Positions 2,230-23,365 of a DNA stretch of 64,000 bases are shown piece after piece. The notes under the pieces were generated by a model. That model was given only the letters and a program-made list of their open reading frames with translations, ran no database searches and had not been told where the DNA came from. This DNA is from an uncultured Acidobacteriota bacterium (GTDB lineage Bacteria; Acidobacteriota; Vicinamibacteria; Vicinamibacterales; CAVVIG01): the NCBI GenBank assembly GCA_963697745.1, contig CAVOPD010000009.1, forward strand, positions 20,898-84,897. Reading direction: 5' to 3'. A program made the position numbers and the translations under genes. Within the stretch, counting starts at the first letter, position 1. Each line of letters opens with the position of its first letter.

Positions 2230-2271
2230 GGGATGGAATGAGGCGGTTCGACACGGCCGCCGCGGCTACCC

Positions 2272-2838
2272 TTGCCGATCGTGGACGACTCGACGCTGAC
2301 GATCCTGGCCGTCGCGGCCGTCGTCGTGGCGCTGCTCGCACTCGCGCTCGCGGTCGGGGCCCAGCAGCGGCTCGCCCGCGTGCGGCGGGACTTCGCCGCC
2401 CTCGGTGACGACGGCGCCACCGACATCGCCCGCGTCGCCGCCACCCAGAACCACCGCATCGACCGGCTGACGGCCGAGGTGGGCCAGCTGCGCGACCACC
2501 TCGAGAGTGCCGAGGACGACGTTCGCCAGAGCCTGCGCAACGTCGCGGTGGTCCGGTACGACGCGTTCGGTGACATGGGTGGCCGGCTGTCGTTCTCCGC
2601 CGCCATCGTCGACGACCTCGGCGACGGCATCGTGCTCAGCTCGATCCACGCTCGCGGCGAGTCGCGGACGTACGCCAAGGGCATCGTCGGCGGTCGCTCG
2701 AGCATCACCCTGACCCCCGAGGAGCAGCAGGCGCTGGCCTCGGCCACCAAGGACGAGCCGGGCACGAGCCGCGCTGCCCGTTCCACCCGCGCAGCCCGCT
2801 CCACCCGCCAGCCCGACCGGACGAAGGACGCGTCGTGA
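2272..2838 (+). CDS. DUF4446 domain protein (membrane-anchored)
   Basis: Intact 188-aa ORF with an N-terminal TM helix (ILAVAAVVVALLALALAV). The core VVRYDAFGDMGGRLSFSAAIVDDLGDGIVLSSIHARGESRTYAKGI is one I recognise as DUF4446. Its stop overlaps the pheA start (GTGA at 2835-2838). Confidence 0.75.
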   Translation: MPIVDDSTLTILAVAAVVVALLALALAVGAQQRLARVRRDFAALGDDGATDIARVAATQNHRIDRLTAEVGQLRDHLESAEDDVRQSLRNVAVVRYDAFGDMGGRLSFSAAIVDDLGDGIVLSSIHARGESRTYAKGIVGGRSSITLTPEEQQALASATKDEPGTSRAARSTRAARSTRQPDRTKDAS

Positions 2839-3783
2839 CACCGCCCCGCACCCCCGACCAGCTGCACCGCTTCGGCTACCTCGGACCGCGCGGCACGTTC
2901 ACGCAGATGGCTCTCGACGCGTGGGACGCCGCCGAGGGTCGGGAGCACCTCCCGTTCGGCTCGGTCGACGCGGCGCTCGCCGCGCTGCGGGCCGGTGACA
3001 TCGACGCCGCCATGGTGCCGATCGAGAACTCGGTCGAGGGCGGCGTGTCGGCGACCCTCGACTCCCTCGCCACCGGTGAGCCGCTCGTCGTCCTCGGCGA
3101 GGTGCTGGTGCCGATCACCTTCGTGCTCTGCGCGCCGGCCCGGGGTGACGCTCGACGACGTGCGCACCGTCGGCACCCACTCGCACGCGTGGGCGCAGGT
3201 ACGCGGGTGGATGAGCGAGCACCTGCCGCAGGCGGAGTACGTGCCGACGCTCTCGACGGCCGCGAGCGCGGCCGCTCTCGGCCAGCCGGGCGAGGTCATG
3301 TTCGACGCCGGCGTGTGCGCGCCCGTCGCGGCCCGGAACGAGGGCCTCGAGGTCCTGGCCGACGGCATCGGCGACAACGCGTCGGCCGTCACCCGCTTCG
3401 TGCTCGTGTCGCGGCCCGGCACGCTGCCCGAGCCGACGGGGGCCGACAAGACGACCGTCGTGCTGTTCCAGAAGGACGACCACGCCGGTGGCCTGCTCGA
3501 GCTGCTCGAGCAGTTCGCCGTGCGCGGCGTCAACATGACGCGGCTCGAGTCGCGCCCGACCGGTGCGGCGATGGGCTCGTACTGCTTCTCCATCGACTTC
3601 GAGGGCCACGTGCTCGACGCGCGGGTCGGCGAGACGCTGATGGGACTGCGCCGAGTCTGCGCCGAGGTGCGCTTCCTCGGCTCCTACCCGCGCGCGGACG
3701 GCGCGCGCGCCGAGGCGCGGCCCGGCACGACGGACACCGACTTCGACCGCGCGAGAGTCTGGCTGGACGAGCTGCGGGCCTGA
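2835..3783 (+). pseudogene. pheA: Prephenate dehydratase with one frame change near 3130-3140
   Basis: The PDT domain text FGYLGPRGTFTQMA...AMVPIENSVEGGV lies in the 2835 frame. It continues in the 2995..3783 frame (RPGVTLDDVRTVGTHSHAWAQ), followed by the ACT domain GLLELLEQFAVRGVNMTRLESRPT...YCFSIDFEGH. One extra base in the run gcgccggcccgggg would explain the shift. Confidence 0.85.
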
Positions 3784-3846
3784 GCCCTCGGCTACCCCTG
3801 TCGCCGCGGACTCCTGCGGGCATCACGCATCCGCACCGAGCGGTCG

Positions 3847-4650
3847 TCAGCCGATCGTCGCGCCCATCTTGAGCAGGAAGAGTGTCTCGTCGCCGACGAC
3901 GCCGTCGTCACCGACGCGGTTGGCCTGCTGGAAGCGCTGGACGACCCGCTTGGTCTCGGCTCCGAAGACGCCGTCGACGGCGATCGTGCCGCCGGCGGCC
4001 CGCAGCGCCCGCTGGAGGGTCGCGACGCTGGGGCCCTTCGCGCCCGTCGCGAGCGTCTCGCTGCCGAGCGACCGGGAGATGAGCAGCACCCAGACGCCGG
4101 CGTCGACCCGGCCCGGCTTCGGTGCGGGGCCCTCGTAGGTGGCCTCGACCCGCTTCATGGCGGCGCGGGTCTGGGGACCGTAGACCCCGTCCACCGCGAC
4201 AGGGCCGTAGTCGGCGTCGTCGAGGAAGCACTGGAGCGCGCGGACCGCGGGGCCCGTCGCGCCGGGCTGGAGCACGGGGTACGCCGTCAGCGTGCGCTCG
4301 CACGCGCCTGCCACGGAGCCCGCGTCCGTCGTCGACGTCGCCGTGGGCGTGGGGGCCGTCGCGGTGGTGCTCGTGACCGACGGCGTCGATGATGCCGTCG
4401 GTGTCGGCCGGGTCGGCGTCAGCGGGTCGGCCGTGGCGGTCGGCACGGGACCGGGGGAGGTCGGATCCGGCCCGGCGACGGCGGTCGACCCGCTCGCGGT
4501 CGGCGACCCGGCGGTCGGCGCGGCGGTCGGGTTGGCCGTCGGCGATGCCGAGCTGCAGCCCGCGAGCGTCACCGCGAGTCCCAGCGCCAGCACGAACCCG
4601 TGCACGCGTCGTGTGCCCGAGCTGCCGCCCGAGCATGCCAGCCGTCCCAT
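3847..4650 (-). CDS. Secreted lipoprotein with a Pro/Thr-rich linker and two peptidoglycan-binding-like repeats
   Basis: An internal ATG at 4650 gives MGRLACSGGSSGTRRVHGFVLALGLAVTLAGCSS, a signal peptide with a lipobox Cys. A PT-rich linker follows. Two repeats then match the PG_binding_1 pattern: GATGPAVRALQCFL...VDGVYGPQTRAAMKRV and GAKGPSVATLQRALRAAG...VDGVFGAETKRVVQRFQ. Confidence 0.7.
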   Translation of the reverse strand: MGRLACSGGSSGTRRVHGFVLALGLAVTLAGCSSASPTANPTAAPTAGSPTASGSTAVAGPDPTSPGPVPTATADPLTPTRPTPTASSTPSVTSTTATAPTPTATSTTDAGSVAGACERTLTAYPVLQPGATGPAVRALQCFLDDADYGPVAVDGVYGPQTRAAMKRVEATYEGPAPKPGRVDAGVWVLLISRSLGSETLATGAKGPSVATLQRALRAAGGTIAVDGVFGAETKRVVQRFQQANRVGDDGVVGDETLFLLKMGATIG

Positions 4651-4750
4651 CGAACTCCCTGTCCTCCTGCGTGTGCGCCCCCGAGCGGACGTTGGAGCAG
4701 TATGCGCCGAGCGACCGACCGAAGCGAGCGACGCGGCCGGGGCCGGTCCG

Positions 4751-4788
4751 GGCCGGTCCGGACAGGTCCGGACAGGGGAGGGGGCGCC
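4751..4788. repeat. Degenerating 10-nt tandem repeat in the divergent intergenic region
   Basis: Read directly from the sequence: GGCCGGTCCG GGCCGGTCCG GACAGGTCCG GACAGGGG. Confidence 0.5.
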
Positions 4789-4936
4789 GGTGCTGCCAGC
4801 CCGGCGCCCCACGGATCCGGGCTGCCCCCGCCTCCCAGAATCCCCTGTCGGTCACCGAGCCGGCTGCCCCTCCGCAGCCCCCCACGAGCAGCCCGGTGAC
4901 CGTTCCCCCTGCACGCCAGAGTCGCCATCACGCGGT

Positions 4937-4982
4937 CTGATACATCCCGCCGCGAAAAAGTTCGATCGGGACGATGTATCAG
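4937..4982. promoter_or_regulatory. Perfect 10-bp inverted repeat (CTGATACATC-N26-GATGTATCAG) about 70 nt upstream of the S8 peptidase start
   Basis: Left arm at 4937-4946, right arm at 4973-4982. The arms are AT-rich in an otherwise very GC-rich region. Immediately downstream is GGAAA (4982-4986)-N17-GTC (5004-5006), which resembles an ECF-type -35/-10 pair. Any function is an inference only. Confidence 0.3.
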
Positions 4983-5051
4983 GAAAGCGAGTACGGACAC
5001 TCAGTCGGTGACAGGGTCTTTCCCAGACCACACGCTTCCAGGAGGTAGTCG

Positions 5052-6677
5052 ATGTCTGAGTCGGGTCCCGACGCCCCCCGGGGTGCGAACGGCGAGGGAG
5101 CAGCAGGCGGCTCGCGCCGCCCCGAGCGCCCGCCGGTCCGCGCCCTCGACCCGGCCACGGCGATGCGCCTGACCGACGGTCGTCCGCCGCTGCCCGCGCT
5201 CTACCTCTCCGACCGGCTGCTCGTGCGCAGCGCCTCCGGCGGCGGGAGGACCCGCGGCATCGACGACCTGCGCGCGGCGCTCGGACGGCTCGACCTCGAC
5301 TTCGACGTGACCCCACGCGCCGACGGCAGCCCGCGCGACCTCGACGAGCCCTCGTGGGGCACGAGCATCACGCTGCGCCCGACCCGGTCGCCCATCGACC
5401 CCGTCGATGCCTGGAGCGTGCTCCAGCGCCTGCGCGGGTCGGGCGACCCGGTCGCTGAGCTGCTGAGCCTCGAGCACGTCCTCCGCCCGGCGGACGGGTA
5501 CTGGGGCGGCATCGGCTACTGGGCGGGGTCGGCTACTGGGGCGGTGTCGGCGGTTACTGGGGCGGCGTGGGCGGCTACTGGGGCGGCGTCGCGAGCTCGG
5601 CGCTGCAGGAGTACGCCGTGCCCGGGCGCGGCGGCCGGATGCCGGTCGCCCTCACCCTGCCCGACCCGGCGCTGCGGGCCCGTCCGCTCGACCGCACCCC
5701 CGTCGTCGTCGTGCCCGACACGGCCGTCGCGGCCCACCCGTGGTTCACGGACGGGTCGAGACTCGTGCGCCTCGAGCTCAAGGACGGGCACCTCGTGCCG
5801 GTCCGGCCCACTCCGCCCGCCCCGCCCCCGGCCACCTCGGGGGGCGCCCCCTCGGGCACCGCGGCCCCCTCGAGCGAGTCCCTCACCTCGACGCCTCCGC
5901 CGAGCGAGCCGGTCGGCCTGCTCCAGGGGCACGCGACCTTCATCGCCGGTCTCGTGCGACAGGGATGCCCCGAGGCGACGATCGTGTCGATCCCGGTCAT
6001 GGGCGACGACGGCGTCGTCGACGAGAGCGTCATGCTCGACGTGCTCCAGGCGCTGCTCGACCGGCACGTGCACGGCCAGCAGAGCGGGCCCGAGTCGGAC
6101 GTCGTCGACGTGCTCTCGCTGTCGCTCGGCTACTACGCCGAGGACCGCACCTACACCTCCGGTCCGGTGGCCGACCTGCTCGACCGGTTCGCCGAGCACG
6201 GCGTCCTCGTCGTCGCCGGAGTCGGCAACGACGGCACGACCGCGCCGTTCGTGCCGGCTGCGCTCGCGGCCGACCCGCCCAAGCGGGTCACCGCGAAGTC
6301 GGTGCCACCGCTCGCGAGCGTCGGCGCCACCAACCCCGACGGGGTCACCGTCGCGCTCTTCTCGACAACCTGCCCGTCGTCAGCGCGGTCCGCGCCGGTG
6401 TCTCGGTGGTCGAGCACGCTCCCGCTGACCAACGGGATGGGCCAGCCGTCGTCGCAGGTGACCACGGACGGCACCGTGCGCTGCACCGTCGACCCCGACG
6501 ACTACACCGGTGGCTTCGGCGTGTGGAGCGGCACGTCGTTCTCCGCCCCGGTCTTCGCGGCAGAGCTCGCGGCCGCCCTCATCGAGCAGGGTGACCTCAC
6601 CGACGTCTCGTCGTCCCGCCATGCGCAAGCGCGCCATCCGCGCCTTGCGCACCTGCATCGGAAAGGTGAAGTCATGA
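5052..6677 (+). pseudogene. Subtilisin-like S8 serine peptidase with an N-terminal domain and a GYWGG repeat linker; at least 3 frame changes
   Basis: ATG at 5052 follows GGAGG. Catalytic-type motifs are present: VVVVPDTAV (Asp), GHATFIAGLV (His), GVGNDG (oxyanion Asn) and GTSFSAPVFAAELA (Ser). The pieces lie in ORFs 5052.., 5567.. and 5740.., with shifts near 5524, 6365 and 6412. The 3' end is uncertain; one frame ends TGA at 6675-6677, overlapping the sigma ATG. Confidence 0.8.
5496..5587 (+). repeat. In-gene tandem repeat encoding about five GYWGG units
   Basis: GG(G/C/T)TACTGGGGCGG recurs at about 5496, 5514, 5531, 5552 and 5573. The second copy has GGG where the others have GGGG, which is where the frame breaks. 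Confidence 0.8.
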
Positions 6678-7253
6678 CTCCGACCCCCACGGCCCCCGAC
6701 GGCCTCGGCACTCTCGCGGGCAAGGCGTTCGCCGCGTATCGCGCGGGCGAGCGCGAGCGTCTCTCGGAGCTCGTCGACCTCGTCACCCCCGTGCTGTGGA
6801 ACGCCGCGCGCTCGCAGGGCGGGTCGCCGGCCACGTGCGAGGACGCCATCCAGACGGCCTTGCCTCCAGCTCGACCGCGCCGAGTCGATCAACGAGCCGG
6901 CGGCGGTGCTCGGGTGGCTCGTCGTCGTCGTCAAGCGCGAGGTGTGGCGCCTGGGGCGCGGCTCGCGCCGCGAGATCGGCGTCGACGAGGTGCCCGAGGC
7001 CCCGACGCAGCAGCTCGACCCCGAGGCGCAGTCGATCCTCACGGAGCGCCAACGCGTGCTGTGGACGCACGTGTCGACCCTTTCGCCGCGGTGCCAGGAG
7101 CTGCTCCGGGTCATCGCGTTCGCCGACCGGCCCGACTACGCGGCCATCGCGCAGTCGTTGGGGATGCCGGTCGGCAGCATCGGCCCGACCCGTGGCCGGT
7201 GCCTGCAGAAGCTGAGGACGACCCTCGGCTCCGACCCCGGATGGGCGGTCTGA
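6674..7253 (+). pseudogene. ECF-type sigma-70 family factor with one frame change near 6850
   Basis: ATG at 6674 follows GAAAGG. Region-2-like text is LVDLVTPVLWNAARSQGGSPATCEDAIQTA. After the shift comes LGWLVVVVKREVWRLGRG. Region 4 is LSPRCQELLRVIAFADRPDYAAIAQSLGMPVGSIGPTRGRCLQKLR. Confidence 0.75.
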
Positions 7254-7254
7254 C

Positions 7255-7729
7255 ATGACATCGCACACCGACGCCATCGATGCCCGCGACATCGCCAACC
7301 TGCGACCAGATCCGTGACCTGTTCGCCCATGCGGACCCGGTCCCGGCGACCTGGCCGAGCGGATCAAGTTCGAGATCAGGTCCGTGCGCTGCAGGCCGAG
7401 GTCGCCGAGGGCATGGACTTCGCCCTGCCGACGACGCGCGGCGCGGACGTCGAGTCGAGCCGACGCCGACCGACTCGGTGACCTTCACGGCCGCCTCGGT
7501 CAGCCTCATGGTGTCGGCCGGACCGAGCGACTCCGACGACGCCGACGACCGCGTTCGGGTCGACGGCTGGGTCACGACGCCGGGCGCCCAGATCGAGGCC
7601 GTGACGTCCGAGGGCGAGCTCGACCATCATTTCGGATGCGATGGACGCTTCGTTCTGGAGGATGATCTACCCCACGGGCCGGTGCACTTCGTCGTGACCG
7701 ACCCGACGACAACGACGTGCGACCGGTGA
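7255..7729 (+). pseudogene. Small protein downstream of the sigma factor; candidate anti-sigma or partner protein, frame-broken
   Basis: ATG at 7255 lies 1 nt after the sigma stop. The N-terminal text MTSHTDAIDARDIANL is broken by shifts. The C-terminal 100 aa are coherent: DSVTFTAASVSLMVSAGPSD...VDGWVTTPGAQIEAVTSEGELDHHFGCDGRFVLEDDLPHGPVHFVV. No family recognised; the role is inferred from position only. Confidence 0.4.
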
Positions 7730-7789
7730 TCACCCGACGATCCAGATCTGAACCGGATCAGGACCGGCGCCTGACGAGAGGCCGGCGGG

Positions 7790-10394
7790 AACCATCGATC
7801 TGCTCGAGCGCCCGACGACCTGCGCGAGCAGGGTGCGGACCGACAACGTGGCCGGACGGCCGTCGAGGCGGCGCGCTCGCTGACGGCCGCCCTCGATGAG
7901 ATCGGCGCGTCGCGGGCGAGGCGCCATCCCGGGAAGCGGCTCGAGCGCTCTGAAGACGCTCATCACGCTGGCGCTCACCGAGTTCATGCTTCGGTTCGAG
8001 GCGGCGACCGATCGCCTCGGGGAGGCGGAGGAGCCGTCGACGCGCTCGGTGACGATGCCCTCCCGGCTCGCGTCGACTACCAGCGGGCCAACGTCCACGG
8101 CCGGGTCGGCGACCTCGCGTCGGCCTGGGACGGGCTCGACGGCGCGGTGCGGCCGGCTCGACGCGTTCACCGAGCACGAGCAGTGCTCGGTCCACCTGAG
8201 CCCGGGGCATGCTCGCGTTCGCGCGCTCGCCGCACGAGGCGCTCGAGTCGTTCGCGGAGGCGGCGCCGTCTCGCGCACGACCTCGGTGCGGGTCGAGCAG
8301 GAGTTCATGGCTCGCACGACGAGGGTATGCCGCCCTACCTCCTGCGTGAGACCCCCGCGTCGCTCGCCGGCATGTCCATCGCAGAGGAGCCGACGCCGAT
8401 GTCTTCCGGGCGCCGGGCGGCTCGACCGGTGCCCGGTCATGCTCGAGGCGGGCCTCGTCAAGGAGGCCGTCGAGGCGCCTGCACGTCGGCCTCGCCGACC
8501 TACCGGCGAGGGCACGACCAGGTGCGCGCGGAGTTCGAGCTCGAGCTCGCGCGGGCCCACCGGCTGCTCGGTCACCTCGATCTCGCGTCCGAGGCGGCGA
8601 CGTCGGCCCGGGAGATGTACGGCGTTCGGCGCGACCGCCTGGGCGGCCAGGCCATGCTCGTCGGACTGCTCATCGACCTCGACCGGCAGCGGCGCCCACG
8701 ACGTGAGCGGAGCGGGACGATCGCCGACGCGACCGGTGGCGCTCGCCGCCGCGGGCACGGCTGACGCGCTCACCGAGACGGCGACCGAGCTCGGCGACCG
8801 AGTTCGCCGACAGCGCGGGGCGGTCGCGGCCCAGGCCCTCCTGTTCGCCGGGATCGTCGCCGGCGCGAACACCCGCCTGCTCAGCCTCGAACGGGTTCGA
8901 CCACGTCGCTGTCCGACGAGCTCGATGCCGCCACCGTGACGGCCATGACGCTGTCGCCACCGGGACCCCGCGCCGGCCCGACGCATCCTCGTGCGCGCCT
9001 GCGCGTCGGCTCGGCGGCGGGCAGGAGGGCAGTGCGAGCCTCGACCTGCGTACGGCTCGTGCGCTGCACGGCGCCCGGCTCTCCGAGCTGGACCTCGAGC
9101 TCGCCGTGCCGCGCGGCAGCGGGGCGGTCCTCGAGGCGCTCGAGCGGTGGCGCAGCGCGACCGACCGGCTCCCGTCGCTCGGCCGCCCCGACGACGAGCA
9201 GCTCGCCGTGCTCACCGAGCAGCTCCGGGCCGTCCGCGGTCACGTCCGTGCGAGTCCGACCCGGCCCAGGCGCGCGAGCTGCACGACCACGCCTCGCGTC
9301 TCGAGCGGCAGATCCGTGACCGCGACTGGGCGCTGAGCCGCAGCGGCGGCGCGTCCCGCACCGTGCCTGTCCGGTCCGGGAGGCCCGGGAGCCAGCTGAC
9401 CTCGGCCGACCGCGACCTCGTGTGGTTCTTCCGTGCATCGCGGTCGCCTCGGTGCCGTCGGCATCATCGGCGGCCGCGCCGCGGTGCGTGACCTCATGCC
9501 CGTCGACCGTGCCGTCGAGCTCGCGCAGCGCATCCGGGTCGACCTCCGGGCGGCCGCCACCCACCACCTCGGCCCCCTCGGCGCCGCCGTCTGGTCGTCG
9601 CTGCGCGCGAGCGTGGCGGAGCTCGACGACGCCCTGATGCGGCCGTGGCGCTCGCAGCGGGGTCTCGTCGTCGTGACGTGCCCCGAGCTGTCCGCCCTCC
9701 CGTGGGCGCTGCTGCCCTCGATGGTCGGGCGGCCCTTCACGGTCGCGCTCTCGTTGACGTCCTTCGCGCCGACGGGGTGTCCCGGACCGCTCCGCCGGTG
9801 GTGGCTCGCCGGTCGGAGTTCGGCGGTCTTCGCCGCGGTCGAACGGCTCGGCGTTCGACCGGCGTGCACGTCGACGTCGGGCCCGCGTGCCGCGTGCCTC
9901 GGCCGAGGGCGGTCGATCGTCGGCACGTGGGGGCCGGAGCCCGCTCGCCGAGCCGTCGCGCCGCGCCGACCTCGTCGGCGCGCTGACCCGACCCCGGCAT
10001 CGTGCACGTCGCGGCGCACGGCACGCACCAGGTCGAGTCGCCGTTGTTCTCCTCGTGCACCTGCACGACGGGCCCGTCTTCGCCCACGAGCTGCAGCCGA
10101 CGGGCGTGCGCGCCGACCACGTCGTGCTCTCGGCCTGCGAGGTCGGGCTCGCCTCGGCCCGTCCCGGCCACGAGTCGCTGGGGCTCGCGCTGTCGCTGCT
10201 CTCGCTCGGCGCGCGCTCCGTCGTCGCCGCGGTCGCGCCCGTGCCCGACGACGTCGCGGCCTCGACGATGACGCGCCACCACGAGCTGCTCGCCTCCGGC
10301 CTGCCGAGCGACGAGGCCCTCGCCCGAGCCGTCGCCGAGACCGACGACCTCGGCGGCCGCCTTCCTCAACCTCGGCGGCCAGCACCGCCCCTGA
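7790..10394 (+). pseudogene. CHAT-domain (caspase-like) protein with an N-terminal helical-repeat region; many frame changes; 5' limit unresolved and it could be two genes
   Basis: The region 9433..10394 contains LVVVTCPELSALPWALLPSMVGRPFTVALS, the His motif HVAAHG, the Cys motif VVLSACEVG, ESLGLALSLLSLGARSVVAAV, and a C-terminal AAFLNLGG followed by TGA at 10392-10394. These are spread over three frames. Upstream + strand text is helical and repeat-like: AEFELELARAHRLLGHLDLASEAATSAREMYG, LSELDLELAVPRGSGAVLEALERWRSATDRL, ARELHDHASRLERQIRDRDW. Confidence 0.65.
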
Positions 10395-10547
10395 CGGCCC
10401 ACCTCGGTGCGCACTCGATCGGGCTCCGCTCAGGAGAACGGTCGAGTGCGGAGTCCGGCGCCGACCCACGGGGCCCGGATCTTGCTACGGTTCGGGCGCA
10501 GATCGAGTGCGCAGTTCGGCGCGTACCCACCGGGCACCCGAGGCTGC

Positions 10548-11800
10548 TCAAATTCGAGGCCGAGTTCCGCGCGACCCAACGGGCATCGACAGGTGCGCAT
10601 CGAGTAGCCCACTTCCGCTCGACCAGGGGCGCCATCGACCTACGAGGCGGCGCGGATCGCCCTCATCTCGTGCCCGCTTGCGCATGGCCATGGCGAGCGC
10701 GATCTTGCGGGCGTCGATGAGATCTCGCGGAGCATCCCCGAGATGGGGTTCGTGAAGCCGATGTACCAGAGCCCTTCGCGCCGCGGGCGGTCCGGCCGCC
10801 GCCCTCGACCGGCCGGCCGCGCTCGTCGAGCACGCCGAGGTCGCCGAGCAGCGGATCGAGGCCCTGGCTGTAGCCGTCGGCGAGCACGACGACGTCCGGG
10901 TCGATGCGTCAGCCGTCCGCCAGCACCACGGCGTCACCGTCGAACCGCGGAGGGCGGCCACCGGCTCGACCGCGCCCGCCCGGATCGCGTCGATGATGCC
11001 GACGTCCTGCACGGGGATCGCGTTGTCGCGCTCGACCCGTGTCAGCAGCCCGGTGTCGGCCTCGGCAGGCCCTGGCGCTGAGGTTCGGCGTCTGGAGCCG
11101 TTCGACCACGGCCGCCGCGCCGTCGACGAAGGCGGCGGGCAGCCGGCGGACGGCGATGCCGGTGTACTGGGCCGGTTCGGCCCGGTGTTGCGGCGCAGGA
11201 TGTGCGGCACCGTGCGCACCGCGAGGCGCATCCGCGTCGCACCGTGGTCGGCCAGGTCGACGGCGAGGTCGGTGCCGGTGTTGCCGCTGCCGACGACGAG
11301 GACGTCCTGGCCGGCGTGCTCCGAGCCGTTGCTGACGTGCCGGCGAGGACGATCTCTCCCGAGTAGCCCTGCAGTCCCGGCACGTCCGGTCGCGCGGCGT
11401 GTGGTTGAAGCCCGTCGCGACGACGACGTAGGGGGCCGTCAGGGTCGTCCCGTCCTCGGGCGTCAGCGTCCAGCCGACCGTCGGGCGATCGGTCGAGGCG
11501 GCGCACCCCGGTGCCGAGCCGGACGTCGAGCCGTGGTGGGCGGCATACAGCTCGAGGTAGCGCACGACGTCGTCGCCGGCGACCCAGCGAGCCATCTCCT
11601 TCGGATCGGCAGGCCGGGCAGGCCGGACAGCCGCGAGGCGTGTGGAGGTCGAGCCGCTCGTAGTGGCCACGCCAGAGCTGCCGATGCTGTCGCTGCGCTG
11701 AGGACGACGCCGTGCAGGCCCCGCTCTCAGGGCGTCGGCGGTCGCCAGGCCCTCCCGGGCCCGCTTCGATGATGTTCACGTCGACCGGGACACTTCGCTG
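10548..11800 (-). pseudogene. Flavin-dependent monooxygenase / NAD(P)-binding oxidoreductase (FMO/CzcO-like); multiple frame changes
   Basis: Recognisable fragments lie in three minus-strand frames. They are VDVNIIEAGPGG (first dinucleotide motif), WRGHYERLDLHTP, DDVVRYLELYAAHHG, YVVVATGFNHTP, GQDVLVVGSGNTGTDLAVDLADHG (second Rossmann), DGDAVVLADG and EGLWYIGFTNPISGMLREI. Both ends are approximate. Confidence 0.65.
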
Positions 11801-11980
11801 GGTCAGCCGGACAACGTATCCGTCCGCCGCCCGACTTCTCGGCAATCGCGCACCAATCCAGTCTCGCGGCCCATGCTCGACGGGTGACCCCTCCGTCGGT
11901 CCCGATGCCCAGGCGGTCGGGGGCCGCGCGAACATGTCACTCGCGAGCGGATCGGCGAGGGCCGCGCCGCGCGCGTCGCG

Positions 11981-12745
11981 ACCCTGGTGACGATGCTCGA
12001 CGCGCAGGAGCAGGAGCTGCCGGTGCCGCGGCTGCGCGCGTCGGCCCTCGACGTGGTCGCGCCCCTGCCGGGGGAGTCCGCGGTCGACGTCGGCTCGGGC
12101 ACGGGACGGAGGTGCGACGCCTCGACGCTGCGGTCGCGGCCAACGGCGGCGCCGTCGGCGTCGAGCCGAACCCGGCCCTTCGCGCTGAGGCCGTGCAACG
12201 GATCGCGCTGCTCGGGTCGAGCGCGACGTGCGTCGACGGTGACGCGGCCGACCTCCCCTTCGCGAACGGGTCGGTGCACGTGCTGCGCTGCGAGCGGGTG
12301 TTCCAGCACCTCGCCGACCCGCAGGCGGCCGCGAACGGGTTCGCTCGCGTGGTCGCGCCCGGCGGCCGGTCGCCGTGTCGACAGCGACTGGGGCACGTCA
12401 TCACCCACCCCGGCGACCCGGACCTCGTGCGCGGCTTCAGCGAGTCGAACTGGCGGCGATGCCCAACCCCTTCGCGCCGCCGCACCTGCCCCACCAGTTG
12501 CGGTCGGCGGGGCTTGCCGTCGACCACGACATCGGCTCGGCCGCGCTCATCATGCCGGCCAGGGCGCTGCTCGGCAGCGGCGTCATGCACGCGAACGCGA
12601 TGCGGCGGTCGAGGAGGGCGCGCTGACCCGGGCGAGGCCGACCGGCTGCTCGCCGAGCCGATGGCCGGCGCTCGCGCCGGGCGGGCCTTCTTCTCCGTGA
12701 CGATGTTCGGGTTCATCGGGCGCAAGCCAGCTCGACCCGTCCCTA
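11981..12745 (+). pseudogene. Class I SAM-dependent methyltransferase, frame-broken
   Basis: LDVVAPLPGESAVDVGSGTG (motif I) is followed, in another frame, by GGAVGVEPNPALRAEA...CVDGDAADLPFANGSVHVLRCERVFQHLADPQAAANGFARVVAPGGR. The C-terminal text includes FFSVTMFGFIGRK. The 3' end is not resolved. Confidence 0.65.
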
Positions 12746-12749
12746 TGGC

Positions 12750-13413
12750 CGCCCTCGGCCGTGCTGAGGTGGGCCTCGAGCCAGTCCCGAGCGGCCGCAC
12801 CGCCCGCCAGGTGTCACGCACCACGGTCAGGGTGCGCCGCGTCGAGAGCCAGGCCGGCGCGCCGAAGTCGCGCACGACCATGAGCCCTTGTGACGGACCA
12901 TCTCGATGCGCGGGTGGTTAGCGGCGTACCCCCTCGGGTTCGTCTCCACGAAGTCGCCGATGAGGTCGAAGTCCTTCGCGCGCAACGCCTCGAGGATGCC
13001 GTCGGGCACCGCTCCGGTGGCCGGTGCGTCGACCGCCGCGCGGAAGCGGGAGGTCTGCGCCGGGCTCGTCGTGCGGAAGCCGCCGCCGGCGCGCAGGCCG
13101 TCGGCGCTCACCTGCACGTGGTCGCGCGGCTCGTGCCGGCGCCGAGGAGCGCCCCCTGGTGCGTCTTGTAGGGCGACTTGTCGGCACTGAAGCGCACGTC
13201 GCGGTTCGGCCGGAAGAGCTTCGCCTCGCCGAACTCGTCCTCGAGGCCGTCGAGGAGCGCGGCATCGGCTCGCGGACGTCACGGTGGTACGCGGCCTTGT
13301 GGCCGAGCCACCAGTGCGCGAGTTGTCGTCCTCGAGCTCTGCGTAGAAGGACAGGGCGCCGGGCGGGAAGCCGGAGAAGGGGGCGGGCGGCCGATGTGAC
13401 GACTCTGACACCG
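12750..13413 (-). pseudogene. DUF2461 (TIGR02453-like) protein, frame-broken
   Basis: Fragments are FSGFPPGALSFYAELEDDNSR, ALLDGLEDEFGEAKLFRPNRDVRFSADKSPYKT (hand-translated), HVQVSADGLRAGGGF and ILEALRAKDFDLIGDFVETNPRGYAANHPRIEMVRHKG. Both ends are approximate. Confidence 0.7.
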
Positions 13414-13509
13414 GGACCGAGCTTGTTAGGCAAGGCTTACCTGTGCTTTCCTCGAATTCCGTCACTTCGTCATGGCGTAATTGCTGAGAACGATCGAGAG
13501 AAGGCACCC

Positions 13510-13865
13510 GTGCTCGCGGCAACGCGCTCATCGGTCTCCGGAGAGGGACTCGAGGCCGCCCTCGTCGTCGTCATCCTCGTCGCCCTCCTCGTCAAGACCG
13601 ACCGCCGTTCGGCGCTGCGCCACGTGCGGTCCGGCGTCGCCGTCGCCGTCACCCTCTCGGTCGCCTCGGCGCCCTGCTCACCTACGGCACGCAGCGCTGA
13701 CGTCGAGGCCCAGGAGCCGTCGGCGGCACGGCCTCGATCATCGCGGTCGTCTTCGTCACCTTCATCGTCTTCTGGATGAAGTTCGGCCTCGCGCACCATC
13801 TCGGGCGAGCTCAAGGGCAAGCTCGACCGGGCCCTCGACCTGGGCCCGTTCGCGTCGTCACCGCC
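13510..13865 (+). pseudogene. FTR1/EfeU-type iron permease; 5' fragment only, frame-broken and truncated at the composition junction
   Basis: GTG at 13510. The text GEGLEAALVVVILVALLVKTDRR matches the REGLE-type motif region. It is followed by SIIAVVFVTFIVFWMK and ISGELKGKLDRALDLGP in other frames. Only about 118 codons remain before the sequence character changes. Confidence 0.6.
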
Positions 13866-13875
13866 GTTGTACGTG
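13850..13875. other. Breakpoint between two compositionally different segments; the 3'-truncated ends of two convergent genes abut here
   Basis: The + strand FTR1 text stops at about 13865. The - strand amidohydrolase text (…QIVAFPQEGMYTYNGG) stops at about 13868. GC content and amino-acid usage change abruptly across this point. Confidence 0.7.
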
Positions 13876-14339
13876 TACATCCCCTCCTGCGGAAAGGCCA
13901 CGATCTGGACGGCGACGTTGTCCTTGAGCTGATCACGCAGTTCCAGCATCACCTTCAGGCCAGTCAGTTTGGGATCATCCACATCGATGTGCGTGCGAAT
14001 GAACTGCACCCCTTTGGACACCTCCTCCTGAATACCCCTGAGCGCACGCGCCCTCGCCTCTTCAGGCGTCTGCGTCTTCTTGACGTCATGCCAGCGTGCG
14101 ATCCCTTCGAACAGCGTGCCGGTCGCGTTCAGGGCGCCTTCGCTACGGCCGGTGTAAACGTAGTCCAGGTGTAGGTGGGCATCCACGTACGGAGGCACCA
14201 CCAGGTGGCCGCGCAAATCGATTTCCTCCTCTGCCTGCGGCAGGGACGTGCCGATCTGCTTGATGACGCCCTGGTCGACGAGAATCTCACTGGCGTGATC
14301 GTGCTGTCGATAGATCCGCGCGTTGGTGAACTTCTTCAT
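13868..14339 (-). pseudogene. Cytosine-deaminase-like amidohydrolase; N-terminal about 157 codons only
   Basis: MKKFTNARIYRQ...GHLVVPPYVDAHLHLDYV (metal-binding HxH)...GVQFIRTHIDVDDP...VAVQIVAFPQEG. The downstream part of ORF 13470..14426 is unrelated GC-rich read-through. Confidence 0.7.
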
Positions 14340-14365
14340 GGCTGGTCCTTGATGGCTCACGACAC

Positions 14366-15555
14366 TCAGGAAGAGCGCAGAGTGCGCTTCGCAAGAAACG
14401 CAAATATGGCGGCGACGGTAAAGCACACCAGAGACATATAGACAATCCCCCTGGCTCCGGTCTCTGGGGAGCCACCGAGCAGCACTCCGCCAACCCAGGT
14501 GGCAATCATGATGGAGAGGTTGAAGACGCTTGATTGCACCGACGTGGCCACATCCTTTGCCTCTTCAATCTGTTTGCTGACGGCTGTCTGATACATGGTC
14601 ACCAGCGGGCCGAAGGCAAGACCCCAGAGGAAGAACGCCATGTGCGACACGCCGCTCGTTCCAGAGAATGCGAGGAACAGTGCCATGGCGATCCCGCCGA
14701 TGGTAAGCATGACGACGATCAGGGGGCGCAGATACGCATCGATGTACTTCGCAGAGACGATAACGGAAATGACCGATCCGATTCCGAAGATCAGCAGAGC
14801 CGCTGTCGATGCCGCCGACGAGGTCGATCATGTCCACCAGGAGAGTGATGTAGGTGTAGATACCGTAATGCGCGGCGACCGAGAGGAAGGTCAGCAGGAG
14901 CACGATCAGAATGGATGGCATCTTGATGATCGCCACAGCGGAATTGGCCTTCGTGAGTGCTTCGCCTTCCACCGAAGGCAGGTAGAATATACGAAAGCAG
15001 GGCGATAAGGACCACAGTCAACCCCAGCACTACGAATTCGGTCCGCCAGCCGAAGGTGATGCCGATCGCCGTCATCATCGGCAGACCGATGCTGATGCCC
15101 ATGGTGTTGCCTGACATGATCACCGTGATGGCTCGGCCGTGCATGTGCTCGGGCACCAGGCGCGTGCCGTACGCTGCAATCATCGGCCACATCACGCCGG
15201 CGCAGATGCCGCCCAGAACGCGGCACGCAACGATAACGGCATAGGACGCCGAAACAGCGACAACGAGATTGGAGATTGCGAATCCGATCAGCAGCGTGAT
15301 CAGCAGCTTCTTGCGATTGACCGCCAGCGTGGCACTGACCAGTGGGATCGCAAAGCCCGCCGACGCCAAGGCGTAGACACCGACGAGGAAACCGACCTGG
15401 GACTCGGCAACTCCCAGGCCTTCCGTCATCTGCGGCAGGACGCCTGAGGGCAGCAGCTCGGACAGAATACCGACGAAGGTCACGCTGGCCATCAGGCCGA
15501 AAAAGACAAACCATGAAAGGTGCTGCCTTTCGCGGGACTGGGGAATAGCTGACAT
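14366..15555 (-). pseudogene. MFS transporter (DHA1 / sugar-efflux-like) with two frame changes
   Basis: Three consecutive minus-strand pieces make up one protein. The first starts MSAIPQSRERQHLSWFVFFGLMASV... from ATG at 15555. The second is 14565..14972. The third is 14366..14710. Together they give about 12 TM segments. Shifts lie near 14960 and 14750. Confidence 0.75.
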
Positions 15556-15623
15556 GATCTGTTCTTTCTTCGGTGCGTTCAGCAACCGCGAACCGGTTGA
15601 TGAACAGACCGGCGCCTCCTGCT

Positions 15624-15794
15624 CTACGGAGTCGGTGCCGCCGAACGAAGCCGAATCGCGAGTGCGGTCAACACGATTCCTGTCGCCGCCGCACACGCGC
15701 CGAACATCCATGCAATCCCCGGCCACAGCAGTGCTGCAAGCCCAACCAGAACGCCGAGAATGCCGCGAACAAGAAGTGATGACGATTCGCGCAT
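15624..15794 (-). CDS. Possible 56-aa two-TM membrane peptide (DUF308/HdeD-like text)
   Basis: Hand translation gives MRESSSLLVRGILGVLVGLAALLWPGIAWMFGACAAATGIVLTALAIRLRSAAPTP. It is below the ORF-track length cut-off and has weak support. Confidence 0.25.
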   Translation of the reverse strand: MRESSSLLVRGILGVLVGLAALLWPGIAWMFGACAAATGIVLTALAIRLRSAAPTP

Positions 15795-15988
15795 GACGCG
15801 CTAGGTCCTTCCAGCCATGAGTACGCCACCCAGCACGCCGCTGTCGGATTTGGGATAGCACACGCGGGCGTCTGAGAACCTCATGTGCGGCCGCTGGCGG
15901 CCTGTCGTCGACGGCGAAAGCGACTACGCGTGTATCGTTGTTTCGGCGGCCGAGGACCGACTCGGTTTCCTACGAAAGTGGTGACTAA

Positions 15989-16333
15989 ATGATGCTCGAT
16001 TGGGAAGGATACCGACGGGCACTGCTCGGACGCATCGGCGACCTCGGCAGACTGACTCCTCAGACGGTGCGCGGGTATCGTGAGCTCAGTGATGCTGGCA
16101 ACAAGACCGGGCATCTCGTTGCAAAGACGCGGGAGCTCATTGCGATTGCGGTCGGCGTGACTCGCCAGTGCGACGGGTGCAACACGACACATGTGCATGC
16201 CGCCAGGAGGCAAGGTGCGACAAAGGAGGAGATTGCCGAGACGTTGGGTATCGCGGTCGCGGTGAATGCGGGAGCCGCGCTGGTCTACTCCGCGCGCGCG
16301 ACGGATGCGCTGATGGGCGGGACGACGGAGTAG
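15989..16333 (+). CDS. Carboxymuconolactone decarboxylase (AhpD-like) family protein
   Basis: Intact 114-aa ORF. LVAKTRELIAIAVGVTRQCDGCNTTHVHAARRQGATKEEIAETLGIAVAVNAG carries the family CxxC. Confidence 0.8.
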   Translation: MMLDWEGYRRALLGRIGDLGRLTPQTVRGYRELSDAGNKTGHLVAKTRELIAIAVGVTRQCDGCNTTHVHAARRQGATKEEIAETLGIAVAVNAGAALVYSARATDALMGGTTE

Positions 16334-16551
16334 CAGGAGAGCGAGACGCGAGGTTCATGTCTGGAGACTTGCATCGTCGCCGAGGCAATCACTTCCAGCC
16401 CAGAAGAACAGCCGACATCCTGTGACCACAGAAGACTTCCACCGATTCGTTCGGGCCGTACCAACATCGGTCGTCGCGACCGCGGGGAAGGGTGACCTGT
16501 CGGGAACGTCTTCGCAACGGGCGAGACACCCTCGTGCCGCCTATCGCTCTG

Positions 16552-17500
16552 TCAATCGATTGGCTTCAGGTTCCTCACGATTTGCTGGCGATGCGCCTCG
16601 AGGAACGGTGGCAGCACCACCGTCTCGCCGAGCGCCGTGGGATCCTCGTTATGGCGAAACCCGGTCCGTCCGTGGCAATCTCAAAGAGCACGCCGTTGGG
16701 CTCGCGCACGTACAAGCTGCGGAACCAGAAGCGGTCAACTTTACCGCTGTTGGGAATATCGAATTGGTTCAGTCTGTCGGCCCATGCGTCGTAGTTCGCA
16801 TCGGGGTACGGAAGGCCACGTGGTGGACGCCCCCTGCGCCTTGCCGTGCCATAGGTAGATCCGGTTGCACGGCGACGTGCAATTCCGCATGCGGCCCCCC
16901 GCTTCCCATTTCGAAAACGTGTACGTGCGTCCCCGGGTTATCGGGATGCGGGCAGTCGCGCACCTGCCGCATGTTGAAGACGCTGGTCAGCAGGGTATCG
17001 GTCGGGTTCAACGTGGGAATACTGATGACAATCGGCCCAAGGCCACGAATCTGGTGCTCCCTGGGCACCGGGCTGCGATCCCACGGCATTGGAGGATCAC
17101 CGGCACCGCCGTCGTCCACGAGTGCGAGCCGCTGACCCTCGGGATCTTCGAATCGCAGGGTCAAGCGGCCGTCGCGTTCGAAGATGTCGCCGTGCGGAAC
17201 CTTGAATTCATCGAAACGCTGTGTCCACCACATCAGTGCGGCTTCACCGTTGACGCGCAAGCACGTGCGGACGATGCTGCGTGTGCCGCGACCCTCGCGT
17301 GACACCGGCCAGTCGAAGAACGTCAGATCGGTCCCCGGGCTTCCCTTGGCGTCGGCATAAAACAGGTGGTAGGCGCTCACGTCGTCCTGGTTGACGCTGC
17401 GCTTGACGAGCCGCATCCCGAGCGTCTGCGTGTAAAAGCGGTGGTTCTCCCTGATGGCGGCTGATATTGCAGTCAGGTGATGAATGCCTGTGAGTTCCAT
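16552..17500 (-). pseudogene. VOC/glyoxalase-fold ring-cleaving dioxygenase (MhqO/YfiE-like) with two frame changes near the 3' end
   Basis: [40 protein letters not shown]...GVHHVAFR. After shifts at about 16800 and 16650 it continues [50 protein letters not shown]...[20 protein letters not shown] (hand-translated). Confidence 0.75.
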
Positions 17501-19302: not shown

Positions 19303-19745
19303 CATGACGCCCGCAGAACACCAGGCACACGACTTCATCCCCTATCCGCTGAACAGGGTTGTCGGAACGATAGCTGATGCGGCAAAAGCGCGCGCTGCGA
19401 TCGAAGCACTGCTTCAAGCCGGCGTGGACTCCGCGCACATCGCTGTCCTCTACGGGGACTTAGGGATGCCGTCGACTCGACCCGGATGGTGCTGAGCACG
19501 GATTCTGGAGCCGGTTCCAGCGCACGCTTATTCACACGCTCGCCGTCAATGAGGAGTCGAGTCATCTCAGACATCACGTCGAGGACCTGCGCGCCGGTCA
19601 CATCATCGTTATGGTGTCGGTCAGCGACGTCCATAGCCGCGAGGAAATCGCCGCGACGTTGCGTGCGTTCAGCGCCGAGCACATTGGATACTTTGGACAG
19701 TGGCACTGGGAGGCTCTCGACATTCCTCCCGTGGAAGACCGCTGA
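19303..19745 (+). pseudogene. Hypothetical about 145-aa protein with one frame change near 19470
   Basis: MTPAEHQAHDFIPYPLNRVVGTIADAAKARAAIEALLQAGVDSAHIAVLYG is followed, in another frame, by RLDPDGAEHGFWSRFQRTLIHTLAVNEESSHLRHHVEDLRAGHIIVMVSVSD...GQWHWEALD. No family recognised. Confidence 0.4.
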
Positions 19746-19764
19746 CGCGGGCCGGCGGCCTCCG

Positions 19765-20414
19765 TCAATCGGACAAGACGACGTCGAGAAGCGTGTTGTT
19801 GACTCTCACACCGTCCGCGTCGGTATCGATGTATCGGAGCTTCCTGAACTTGTTCATGAAGAAGTTGACCCGGGGACGGGTGGTCCGACCATCTCTGCGA
19901 GGAGCTCCTGGAATCTTTCGGCAGCACGCGAAGTGGACCGTCGTTGTTGCTGTATTGTGCGAGGAGCAGGAGTGTCCTGGCCAACCGCTTCTCTGTGGAG
20001 TTGAAGAGCTGATCGACTAGGTCTTCCTCCATCCGAATGTTCCGTCTCAGGATGTGAGAGACGAAACACTCCGCGAAGTTCTCCTCGGCGTGCAGCTTCC
20101 GCGCTATCTCCTGTCGCCGGATTCGGAGGACGCAACATTCGGACATTGCGCTGGCCGTGGCGGCATGCACGGCTTGGCCCACCAGACAGCCTTCACCGAA
20201 AAACTCGCCCGCCTTCAGTCCGCGATGACCGCCTCTTTGCCGGCGTGAACACGACTGAGAGACGGACGGAGCCCTTCTCGATGTAGATGACGATCGTGCA
20301 CGGCTCGCCTTGTCTGAAGGAATACGTGGCACCCGGAGCGTACGCGACGCGTTCCGCTCGAACACCGTTCCACTCGATCGGGTACGCCTCGGTCAGAGGA
20401 TTCTTTTTCGCCAC
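19765..20414 (-). pseudogene. Crp/Fnr family transcriptional regulator with at least 3 frame changes
   Basis: The cNMP-binding text is GEPCTIVIYIEKGSVRLSVV...KAGEFFGEGCLVGQAVHAATASAMSECCVLRI, followed by STEKRLARTLLLLAQ. The HTH is ISQELLAEMVG...RPRVNFFMNKFRKLRYID (hand-translated). Pieces lie in ORFs 20193..20414, 19598..20365 and 19854..20138. Confidence 0.7.
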
Positions 20415-21035: not shown

Positions 21036-23365
21036 ATGCGGTCACGAGTGGCAGTCCTCGCGGTGTTGGTCGGTCTGCTTCCTCGACCCGCTTCCGCTCA
21101 ATTGCCTTGGATGAACACCCATCTCAGCCCTGAAGCGCGCGCTGAGCTGCTGCTCGACGCCATGAGCCTCGACCAGAAAATTCAGCAGATGGGAAACTCG
21201 CCTCATCCCAACGAGGAACTGGCTGGTTGCGAATTCACAGCCCCTCGGACGCCACATCGAAGGCATTCCCGAGCTGGCGATTCCGACGTATCGAGCCATC
21301 AACGGCGGCAACGGAATTCGGGGTGGTGACTGCCTTCCAGAGCCGATTTCGACCGGTCTCCCGCAGCGCCACGCTGGGTGCCGCAACGTTCAATCGCGCG
21401 ATCAACTTCGCGTGGGGTGAAGTATTGGGCCAGGAGGCTCGCGACGTCGCGCACCACGTGCTGCTCGGCCCCGGACTCAACCTGATTCGCCATCCGTACA
21501 CAGGGCGAGCCCAGGAGTACATGGGGGAGGATCCGTACCTGATCGGGGTTATCGCGACTGAACAGGTCAAAGGAATTCAGTCCCGCGGCACCCACGCGAT
21601 GATCAAGCACTTCGTGACCAACGACGACGAGGGCGGCCAATTCGAGCGCTGGACGAAAGCCACTCGGGTTCCCGCTCGGGCCATGCACGAGATTTACCTG
21701 CTGCCCTTCGAGATGGCAATTCAGGGACGGGGATGCCGCGTCTCTCATGTGTGCCTTTCCGCACCTCAACGGCGAGTGGGCTTGCGAGAATCAGGAGCTC
21801 ATGATCAAGACGCTGGTGAACCGATGGGGTTTCAAGGGGTACGTAGAAAGTGACCGGCGGGCGGTCCACAGCACGGCTGGCTCGATCCTCGCTCGGATGT
21901 CCATCGAGCTCGACTCTGAAGCCGAGGTTCTACTCGGCCGACGAACGTGAAAGCCGCGATTGCCGCGGGCGAGGTCACGGAGGCTGACATCGACGCGCTG
22001 CTCCGAGGCCGTTACGTGAAGATGTTCGAGTTCGGCCATTTCGACGAGCCGTACGACGCGTTTCTGCGCACCGACTACGTTGGCCACGCTGCGGTGGCGA
22101 AGAAGGCCGCCGAAGAGGGAGTCGTTCTGCTCAAGAACCAGGGAGACTTCCTCCCGCTGACAAAGGGAGTCCGGTCGGTCGCTCTGATCGGCGCCGAATG
22201 GTTCGCGGGCATGGCCACGCTACCGCCTCGCAACGGCAACCCCTGGAGCTTACGACCGTGATTTCCCCTCCCGAGCTCACGATCGCCCCACAGCAGGGAC
22301 TCGAGAACACGCTCGCGAGAACTGGGCTCGACTGCGATCGTCACATATAACAACGGCTCCGACATCGCCGCGGCCGTGGCCCTTGCTCAGGCTTCCGATG
22401 TCGTGATCGTGATGGTTGGGAACACCCCGCGTGAGACGCGCGACCTCGTAGACCTTCGTCTACCAAAAGTCCCGGCTGCGGATAGTTCGCCAGATCCGTG
22501 TGACGCGTGACGAAGAGGAGGCCTGCGAGGCGCCTCCACCGTCTGGCGCTGCTACGACGGATCAGGAGGCACTTGTCGCGGCGATTGCCACGGCGGCCGG
22601 GAACAAGACCGTCGTCGTGCTGAAGACGTCGGGCATGGTGCTCATGCCGTGGCTGGACAACGTGCGCGCACTTCTCGAGGCATGGTTCCCGGGCCAGGCA
22701 TGATGGCGACGTGGTGGCGGATATTCTTTTCGGCGTCATTTCGCCGTCAGGCAAGCTGCCGGTCACTTTCGGCAACACCCCACGCGAGGCTGCCTACGCC
22801 ACAGAAGCCCAGTATCCTGGCGTCCGCGAGAACAACGGCCTACCCGGCGGCCCGGGCTTCGGTACCGGAACCCCTGGTGTCGCGCAGCTCGTGGGCCACT
22901 ACTCGGAAGACCTGGAGGTGGGCTACCGGTGGTACGAGGCCCACAACGTGACAGCCGGTGTTTCCGTTCGGATTCGGTCTGTCGTACACGACGTTCACCT
23001 ACAGCGACCTATCCGTTGGCACCGGCATAGACCAAGAGACTGGCCGCGCGGTCTTGACCGTCACATACAGGATCACCAACACAGGCAATAGACGCGGTGC
23101 CGAGGCATCCCAGGTCTATGTCACGCTCCCCAGTGCGGGTGAACCGTCCAAACGGTTGGTCGGCTTCCGAAGGTCAATCTGATGCCCGGCGAGAGTTGCG
23201 TAACCGTCACCGTAGACTCGTCGGCCTCGAACCATCCCCTGTCGTACTTCGTGCCTGATCCGAACGGGAACTGGTCGGACGGATCTGGTTAACGCCTGGG
23301 AAGGTATACGTTCACGTTGGAACGTCGTCGGCGGATACTCCCCTGGTAGGGACGGTCGACCTGTC
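21036..23365 (+). pseudogene. Glycoside hydrolase family 3 (beta-glucosidase-like), secreted; about 8 frame changes
   Basis: Signal peptide MRSRVAVLAVLVGLLPRPASA. GH3 text follows: IEGIPELAIPTYRAINGGNGIRG, HVLLGPGLNLIRHPYTGRAQEYMGEDPYL, KHFVTNDDEGG, HEIYLLPFEMAI, RWGFKGYVESDRRAV, VVLLKNQGDFLPL, TVVVLKTSGMVLMPWLDNVRALLEAWFPGQ, SPSGKLPVTFG and FPFGFGLSYTTFTYSDL. The 3' end is not resolved. Confidence 0.85.

Follow-up and report, generated by a model that had tools for sequence, protein, structure and literature searches.

A very probable assembly misjoin attaches a slice of Terrabacter-like chromosome to an acidobacterial contig

Interspecies chimeric contigs are common in metagenome-assembled genomes (MAGs) and are invisible to marker-gene contamination estimates (bioRxiv 10.64898/2026.10.15.759294), and wrongly joined distant sequences are a known error class of long-read metagenome assemblies (PMC13087279). 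The locus described here lies in an acidobacterial genome of 5.53 Mb (21 contigs, mean GC ~66%) with an estimated completeness of 74.5% and contamination of 0.78%. It resembles the chimeric contigs of both reports, including the 'clipping events' and contaminated contigs of PMC13087279, in that foreign sequence is joined at one point within a contig, the flanks belong to different taxa, genes are broken at the join and the marker-based estimate (0.78% here) is blind to it. Unlike the benchmark of bioRxiv 10.64898/2026.10.15.759294, which used short-read assemblers, this locus shows indel-rich sequence and end blocks of 20-35 kb, which suggest a long-read assembly; a further difference from the cited contigs is that an overlap of 3.07 kb between the ends of two contigs still preserves the true path. 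Like genomic islands and integrative elements, this block shows a sudden shift in composition and carries foreign genes. However, the block lacks the integrase, tRNA target, direct repeats and mobile-element cargo of such elements, both of its boundary genes are cut at a blunt join, and it consists of another phylum's collinear core chromosome that ends with the contig.

The window, a stretch of 64,000 nucleotides, corresponds to positions 20898-84897 of contig C9 of the acidobacterial genome. We consider it very probable that the feature is an assembly misjoin, in which a 34.75-kb Terrabacter-like slice is attached to an acidobacterial contig at an arbitrary position within two unrelated genes. 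The features are as follows, in window positions unless a contig is named.

1-13854 (whole block C9:1-34751), no strand: foreign block, collinear with Terrabacter, ~74% GC
13510-13854, + strand: FTR1/EfeU-type iron permease, 5' fragment (Pfam PF03239, E 2e-18; three-frame reading)
13854/13855 (C9 34751/34752), no strand: breakpoint, blunt join CCGTTCGCG / TCGTCACCGCCG (end of homology and start of the C5 overlap)
13855-64000, no strand: host (acidobacterial) genome proper (tetranucleotide profile; matches in relatives)
13855-16924 (C9:34752-37821), equal to C5:162472-165540, no strand: segment present twice (blastn 98.8%, 21 gap columns)
13855-14339, - strand: cytosine deaminase (CodA-like amidohydrolase), 5' fragment (Pfam Amidohydro_3; intact copy on C5)
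14366-15500, - strand: MFS transporter, split into two ORFs by a frameshift (Pfam MFS_1 on both ORFs)

The abrupt composition switch claimed by the original prediction was confirmed when GC in 1-kb windows and tetranucleotide profiles were computed. GC was 0.70-0.77 over window positions 1-13000 versus 0.58-0.67 over 14001-64000, with a single-point drop from ~74% to ~62% at the two cut convergent genes. Along the whole contig, GC was 0.73-0.74 over C9:1-35000 and ~0.64-0.66 over the remainder, and the high-GC stretch coincides exactly with the initial 34.75 kb of C9. The tetranucleotide distance to the genome median was 0.27 in the three 10-kb windows of the block, compared with a genome median of 0.077, whereas the profile of the right flank was inside the normal range of the genome. 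A change-point estimated from GC alone fell at window position 13393, 460 nt to the left of the breakpoint defined by homology; this is too far left because the spacer upstream of FTR1 is AT-richer, and homology rather than GC places the true switch point.

Homology searches identify the high-GC block as part of a chromosome of Terrabacter type (Intrasporangiaceae, Actinomycetota). A PheA fragment (213-aa prephenate dehydratase) is 88-91% identical to its counterparts in Terrabacter species, with 91% for Terrabacter sp. Root85. Window positions 1-13854 are collinear, at ~80-82% nucleotide identity, with many Terrabacter and Humibacillus loci, and C9:10-20000 is collinear with four whole genomes at 79-88%, indicating that the entire 34.75 kb is a slice of an ordinary actinobacterial chromosome. 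Pfam matches identified pheA and genes for a peptidoglycan-binding protein, an S8 peptidase, a CHAT protein, a DUF2461 protein and FTR1; further ORFs, named by sequence alone, are cobQ-like, sulP-like and F420-type oxidoreductase-like. The cargo is of the housekeeping type (pheA, cobQ-like, sulP-like, FTR1). The block extends to base 1 of C9, leaving one boundary visible, and blastn of C9 found no further copies in the assembly, its own place and the C5 overlap aside.

The two flanks were assigned to different taxa. Against 20 relatives of the host, the left 13.85 kb gave only chance matches (≤130 bp, ≤58 bits), whereas the right 20 kb was matched by these same 20 genomes, with matches in relatives of the same genus and of the same order (in a same-genus genome, 85% identity over 1.3 kb and 80% over 0.96 kb); three Terrabacter/Humibacillus genomes gave only two weak matches to the right flank. 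The left flank is therefore Terrabacter-like (Actinomycetota) and the right flank belongs with the host, and the two do not share one taxonomic assignment.

Within the block, an S8 peptidase, a sigma factor and a CHAT protein are encoded in a cluster at window positions 5052-10394. This cluster lies wholly within the Terrabacter-collinear DNA and its gene order is kept in Terrabacter loci; it is therefore an actinobacterial cluster and not an acidobacterial one.

Both convergent genes that meet at the switch lack their 3' parts, as had been predicted: 116 of ~270 codons remain of FTR1 and 161 of 419 of the deaminase. The FTR1 fragment corresponds to residues 1-116 of the Terrabacter/Humibacillus protein, and a tblastn match with the Humibacillus FTR1 as the query stops at 13854. 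Terrabacter reference FTR1 genes run past the breakpoint (...LGPFA followed by IALVAFLGVGREGLE), and in five Terrabacter/Humibacillus loci FTR1 continues as ...LGPFA followed by IALVAFLGVGREGLETAIFF. The missing 3' part of the Terrabacter-like gene was not found anywhere in the assembly; the sole other FTR1 match, at 429.5 kb on C18, likewise corresponds to the family profile's 5' half. The deaminase fragment comprises 161 codons plus 2 nt. In 60 relatives it found only distant paralogues (≤50% identity), so the synteny of the relatives could not be used for this gene, but the same search brought the copy on C5 to light.

That copy shows how the acidobacterial sequence continues. The 3,070 bases of C9 that form the duplicated segment are the last 3,069 bases of C5. 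To the left of the overlap, C5 reads ...GATCATC followed by TCGTCACCGCCG, and it carries the remaining coding sequence of the deaminase (GGD-EMIEEALKMGADCVGGIPHFE... up to the stop), giving a complete, uninterrupted protein of 419 aa. Residues 51-419 of this protein, read from C5, matched the E. coli cytosine deaminase 1K6W at E 5e-110, and cytosine deaminases in the PDB matched it at E 1e-108 to 1e-114. Since the right flank is repeated at the end of C5 together with an intact deaminase, its true left neighbour is C5 and not the high-GC block. The acidobacterial chromosome therefore passes from C5 into C9, which makes the high-GC block a dead-end side branch.

Two other searches concerned sequences at the join. 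An exact-protein look-up with the intact CMD-family protein adjoining the join returned no record and no independent copy, and a pattern scan of metagenome contigs with the 28-mer immediately to the right of the join gave zero matches, that is, no independent assembly of the locus. Host DNA around the deaminase (window 13855 to ~21000 and C5:140000-165540) has a GC content of 58-63%, below the genome mean of 66%; together with the lack of a close homologue of the gene in the 60 relatives, this DNA may represent an accessory region of the acidobacterium.

Two kinds of evidence, independent of each other, agree on 13854/13855 as the breakpoint. Alignments to five Terrabacter/Humibacillus loci end at 13853 or 13854, although those loci themselves extend 0.04-2.5 kb further, and the C5 overlap starts at 13855, the base right after the end of the Terrabacter homology. 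The 13-mer gtcgtcaccgccg had been described as readable in either gene, but this did not hold: the 12 bases TCGTCACCGCCG are identical in the intact C5 deaminase, whereas Terrabacter FTR1 genes have ATCGCCCTCGTC at this place. The join is blunt because TCGTCACCGCCG belongs to the deaminase alone. No microhomology was found at the join, and the sequences placed side by side share zero bases.

Single-base frameshifts are seen on both sides of the join in the window. Compared with Terrabacter proteins, the left block changes frame at least 16 times over 11.5 kb, and ~6 single-base indels within 345 nt also disrupt the FTR1 fragment; because the consensus is of low quality on either side of the join, sequencing errors are the best reading of the FTR1 frameshifts, rather than pseudogene decay. 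Over the 3.07 kb of the duplicated segment, 14 indel events and 17 substitutions separate the C5 copy from the C9 copy, and single-base indels distinguish the two copies in the MFS transporter region. On the host side, the MFS transporter (14366-15861) appears split over frames, as do a Crp/Fnr-like regulator (19486-20365) and a GH3-like glycosidase (21227-21853), both named from ORF sequences only; these split genes fit single-base indel errors throughout the genome. Error density was also considered as a way to tell the left block from the rest, but it had no discriminating power because the right-flank copies, with 14 indel events in 3.07 kb, are also error-rich.

Other contig ends of the same assembly are unusual as well. 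On C6, a second blunt switch (C6:671018-703279) takes GC from 66% to 32% for the 32.3 kb to the contig end and cuts an HlyD-like membrane-fusion gene after ...VAVNVDAYPG. The AT-rich block encodes Asn-rich BNR/Asp-box-like proteins, an M28 peptidase and a soluble glucose-dehydrogenase-like protein; no tRNA and no Rfam match were found in it, and one tRNA-Ser falls in the adjoining host part. The start of C5 (positions 1 to ~17734) has 71% GC, and these first ~17.7 kb gave 30 matches to Terrabacter/Humibacillus genomes (70-77% nucleotide identity, up to 1.55 kb, non-collinear), compared with only two weak matches for a 20-kb control of host DNA. It is probably a further end block from a foreign actinobacterium, and since its matches are non-collinear, it points to an actinobacterium different from that of the C9 block. 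On C18, the 3'-terminal ~216 kb (~496857-712844) have 70-72% GC, a distinct tetranucleotide profile and an abrupt onset at ~496.9 kb; they are not Terrabacter-like, their matches to relatives are weak, and they may represent either a large segment of foreign origin or a region of very atypical character.

Forks were seen at two further pairs of contigs. C11:1-2933 equals C15:36577-33641 at 93%, with an end block of 33.6 kb on C15 (62% versus 65% GC), and C1:1-4883 equals C17:24796-19937 at 98.2%, with an end block of 19.9 kb on C17. At both forks a contig start overlaps an internal site, the same topology as at C5/C9. The end blocks at the C9, C5, C6, C15 and C17 sites measure ~18-35 kb, which is roughly long-read length.

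The join was also searched for marks of mobile elements. The tRNA scan found none in window positions 1-30000 and none in the whole block. No repeats bracket the join; within 6 kb of it only short imperfect matches of 16-44 nt were present, which is the level expected by chance in GC-rich DNA. No integrase, transposase or relaxase was found among the flanking ORFs scanned on both sides (ORF lists and Pfam). These scans uphold the earlier statement that transposase, integrase, tRNA and repeats are absent near the join.

The original prediction had preferred a chimeric join, as an assembly artefact, over a boundary of horizontal transfer, and this preference is supported by the different taxa of the flanks, the intact path through C5 and the lack of mobile-element hallmarks. 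The alternative would be a real, very recent inter-phylum transfer, in which at least 35 kb of Terrabacter-like chromosome entered the deaminase gene of one acidobacterial strain or sub-population by illegitimate recombination, with C5 representing the insertion-free strain. Illegitimate recombination can yield blunt, homology-free joins, and the assembly does contain two versions of the locus; the 17 substitutions by which they differ in 3.07 kb could mean two strains and not two noisy consensuses, and that would fit a genuine structural variant carried by one strain. However, the searches turned up no mobile-element machinery, tRNA or repeats, the cargo is a collinear piece of core chromosome interrupted in the middle of a gene, its composition is wholly unameliorated, and the block ends with the contig, so that a single boundary with host DNA is seen. 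Moreover, foreign blocks stand at other contig ends, one of them at 32% GC, and a single transfer does not account for these. We regard such a transfer as very unlikely; if it were true, a fresh inter-phylum transfer of core chromosomal DNA would have been caught in a soil population.

End-to-end concatenation without spacer Ns, in which scaffolding or the submitter placed a wrongly binned actinobacterial contig of 34.75 kb directly in front of an acidobacterial one, would account for two genes cut as if at contig ends, for an acidobacterial part that starts 3.07 kb inside the end of C5, as in an ordinary contig-end overlap, and for the position of every clearly foreign block at a contig end, but there are zero Ns in all 21 contigs of the assembly and the binner would need to have accepted a contig of very different composition, and we consider this very unlikely. 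It is also an artefact and differs from the misjoin favoured here only in the step that creates the false join.

For the assembly misjoin, we propose that a Terrabacter-like actinobacterium from the same sample would be the source of the block. The join would go back either to one or a few chimeric long reads or to a link drawn falsely in the assembly graph or during scaffolding, in the setting of what was presumably a low-coverage, indel-rich long-read assembly, and the terminal overlap between C5 and C9 would be the scar of the broken true path.

As an artefact and not biology, the finding matters for quality control only. In the collection searched, this genome represents its species, yet it holds DNA of another phylum inside its contigs at a marker-based contamination below 1%, and the other contig-end blocks (C6, C5, C18, C15 and C17) call for equal caution. 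The different taxa of the flanks bear out the earlier warning that gene context be kept within each side: inference on gene neighbourhood, operons or horizontal transfer must not cross 13854/13855. All features in window positions 1-13854 (C9:1-34751), including the S8/sigma/CHAT cluster, are to be credited to the Terrabacter-like actinobacterium.
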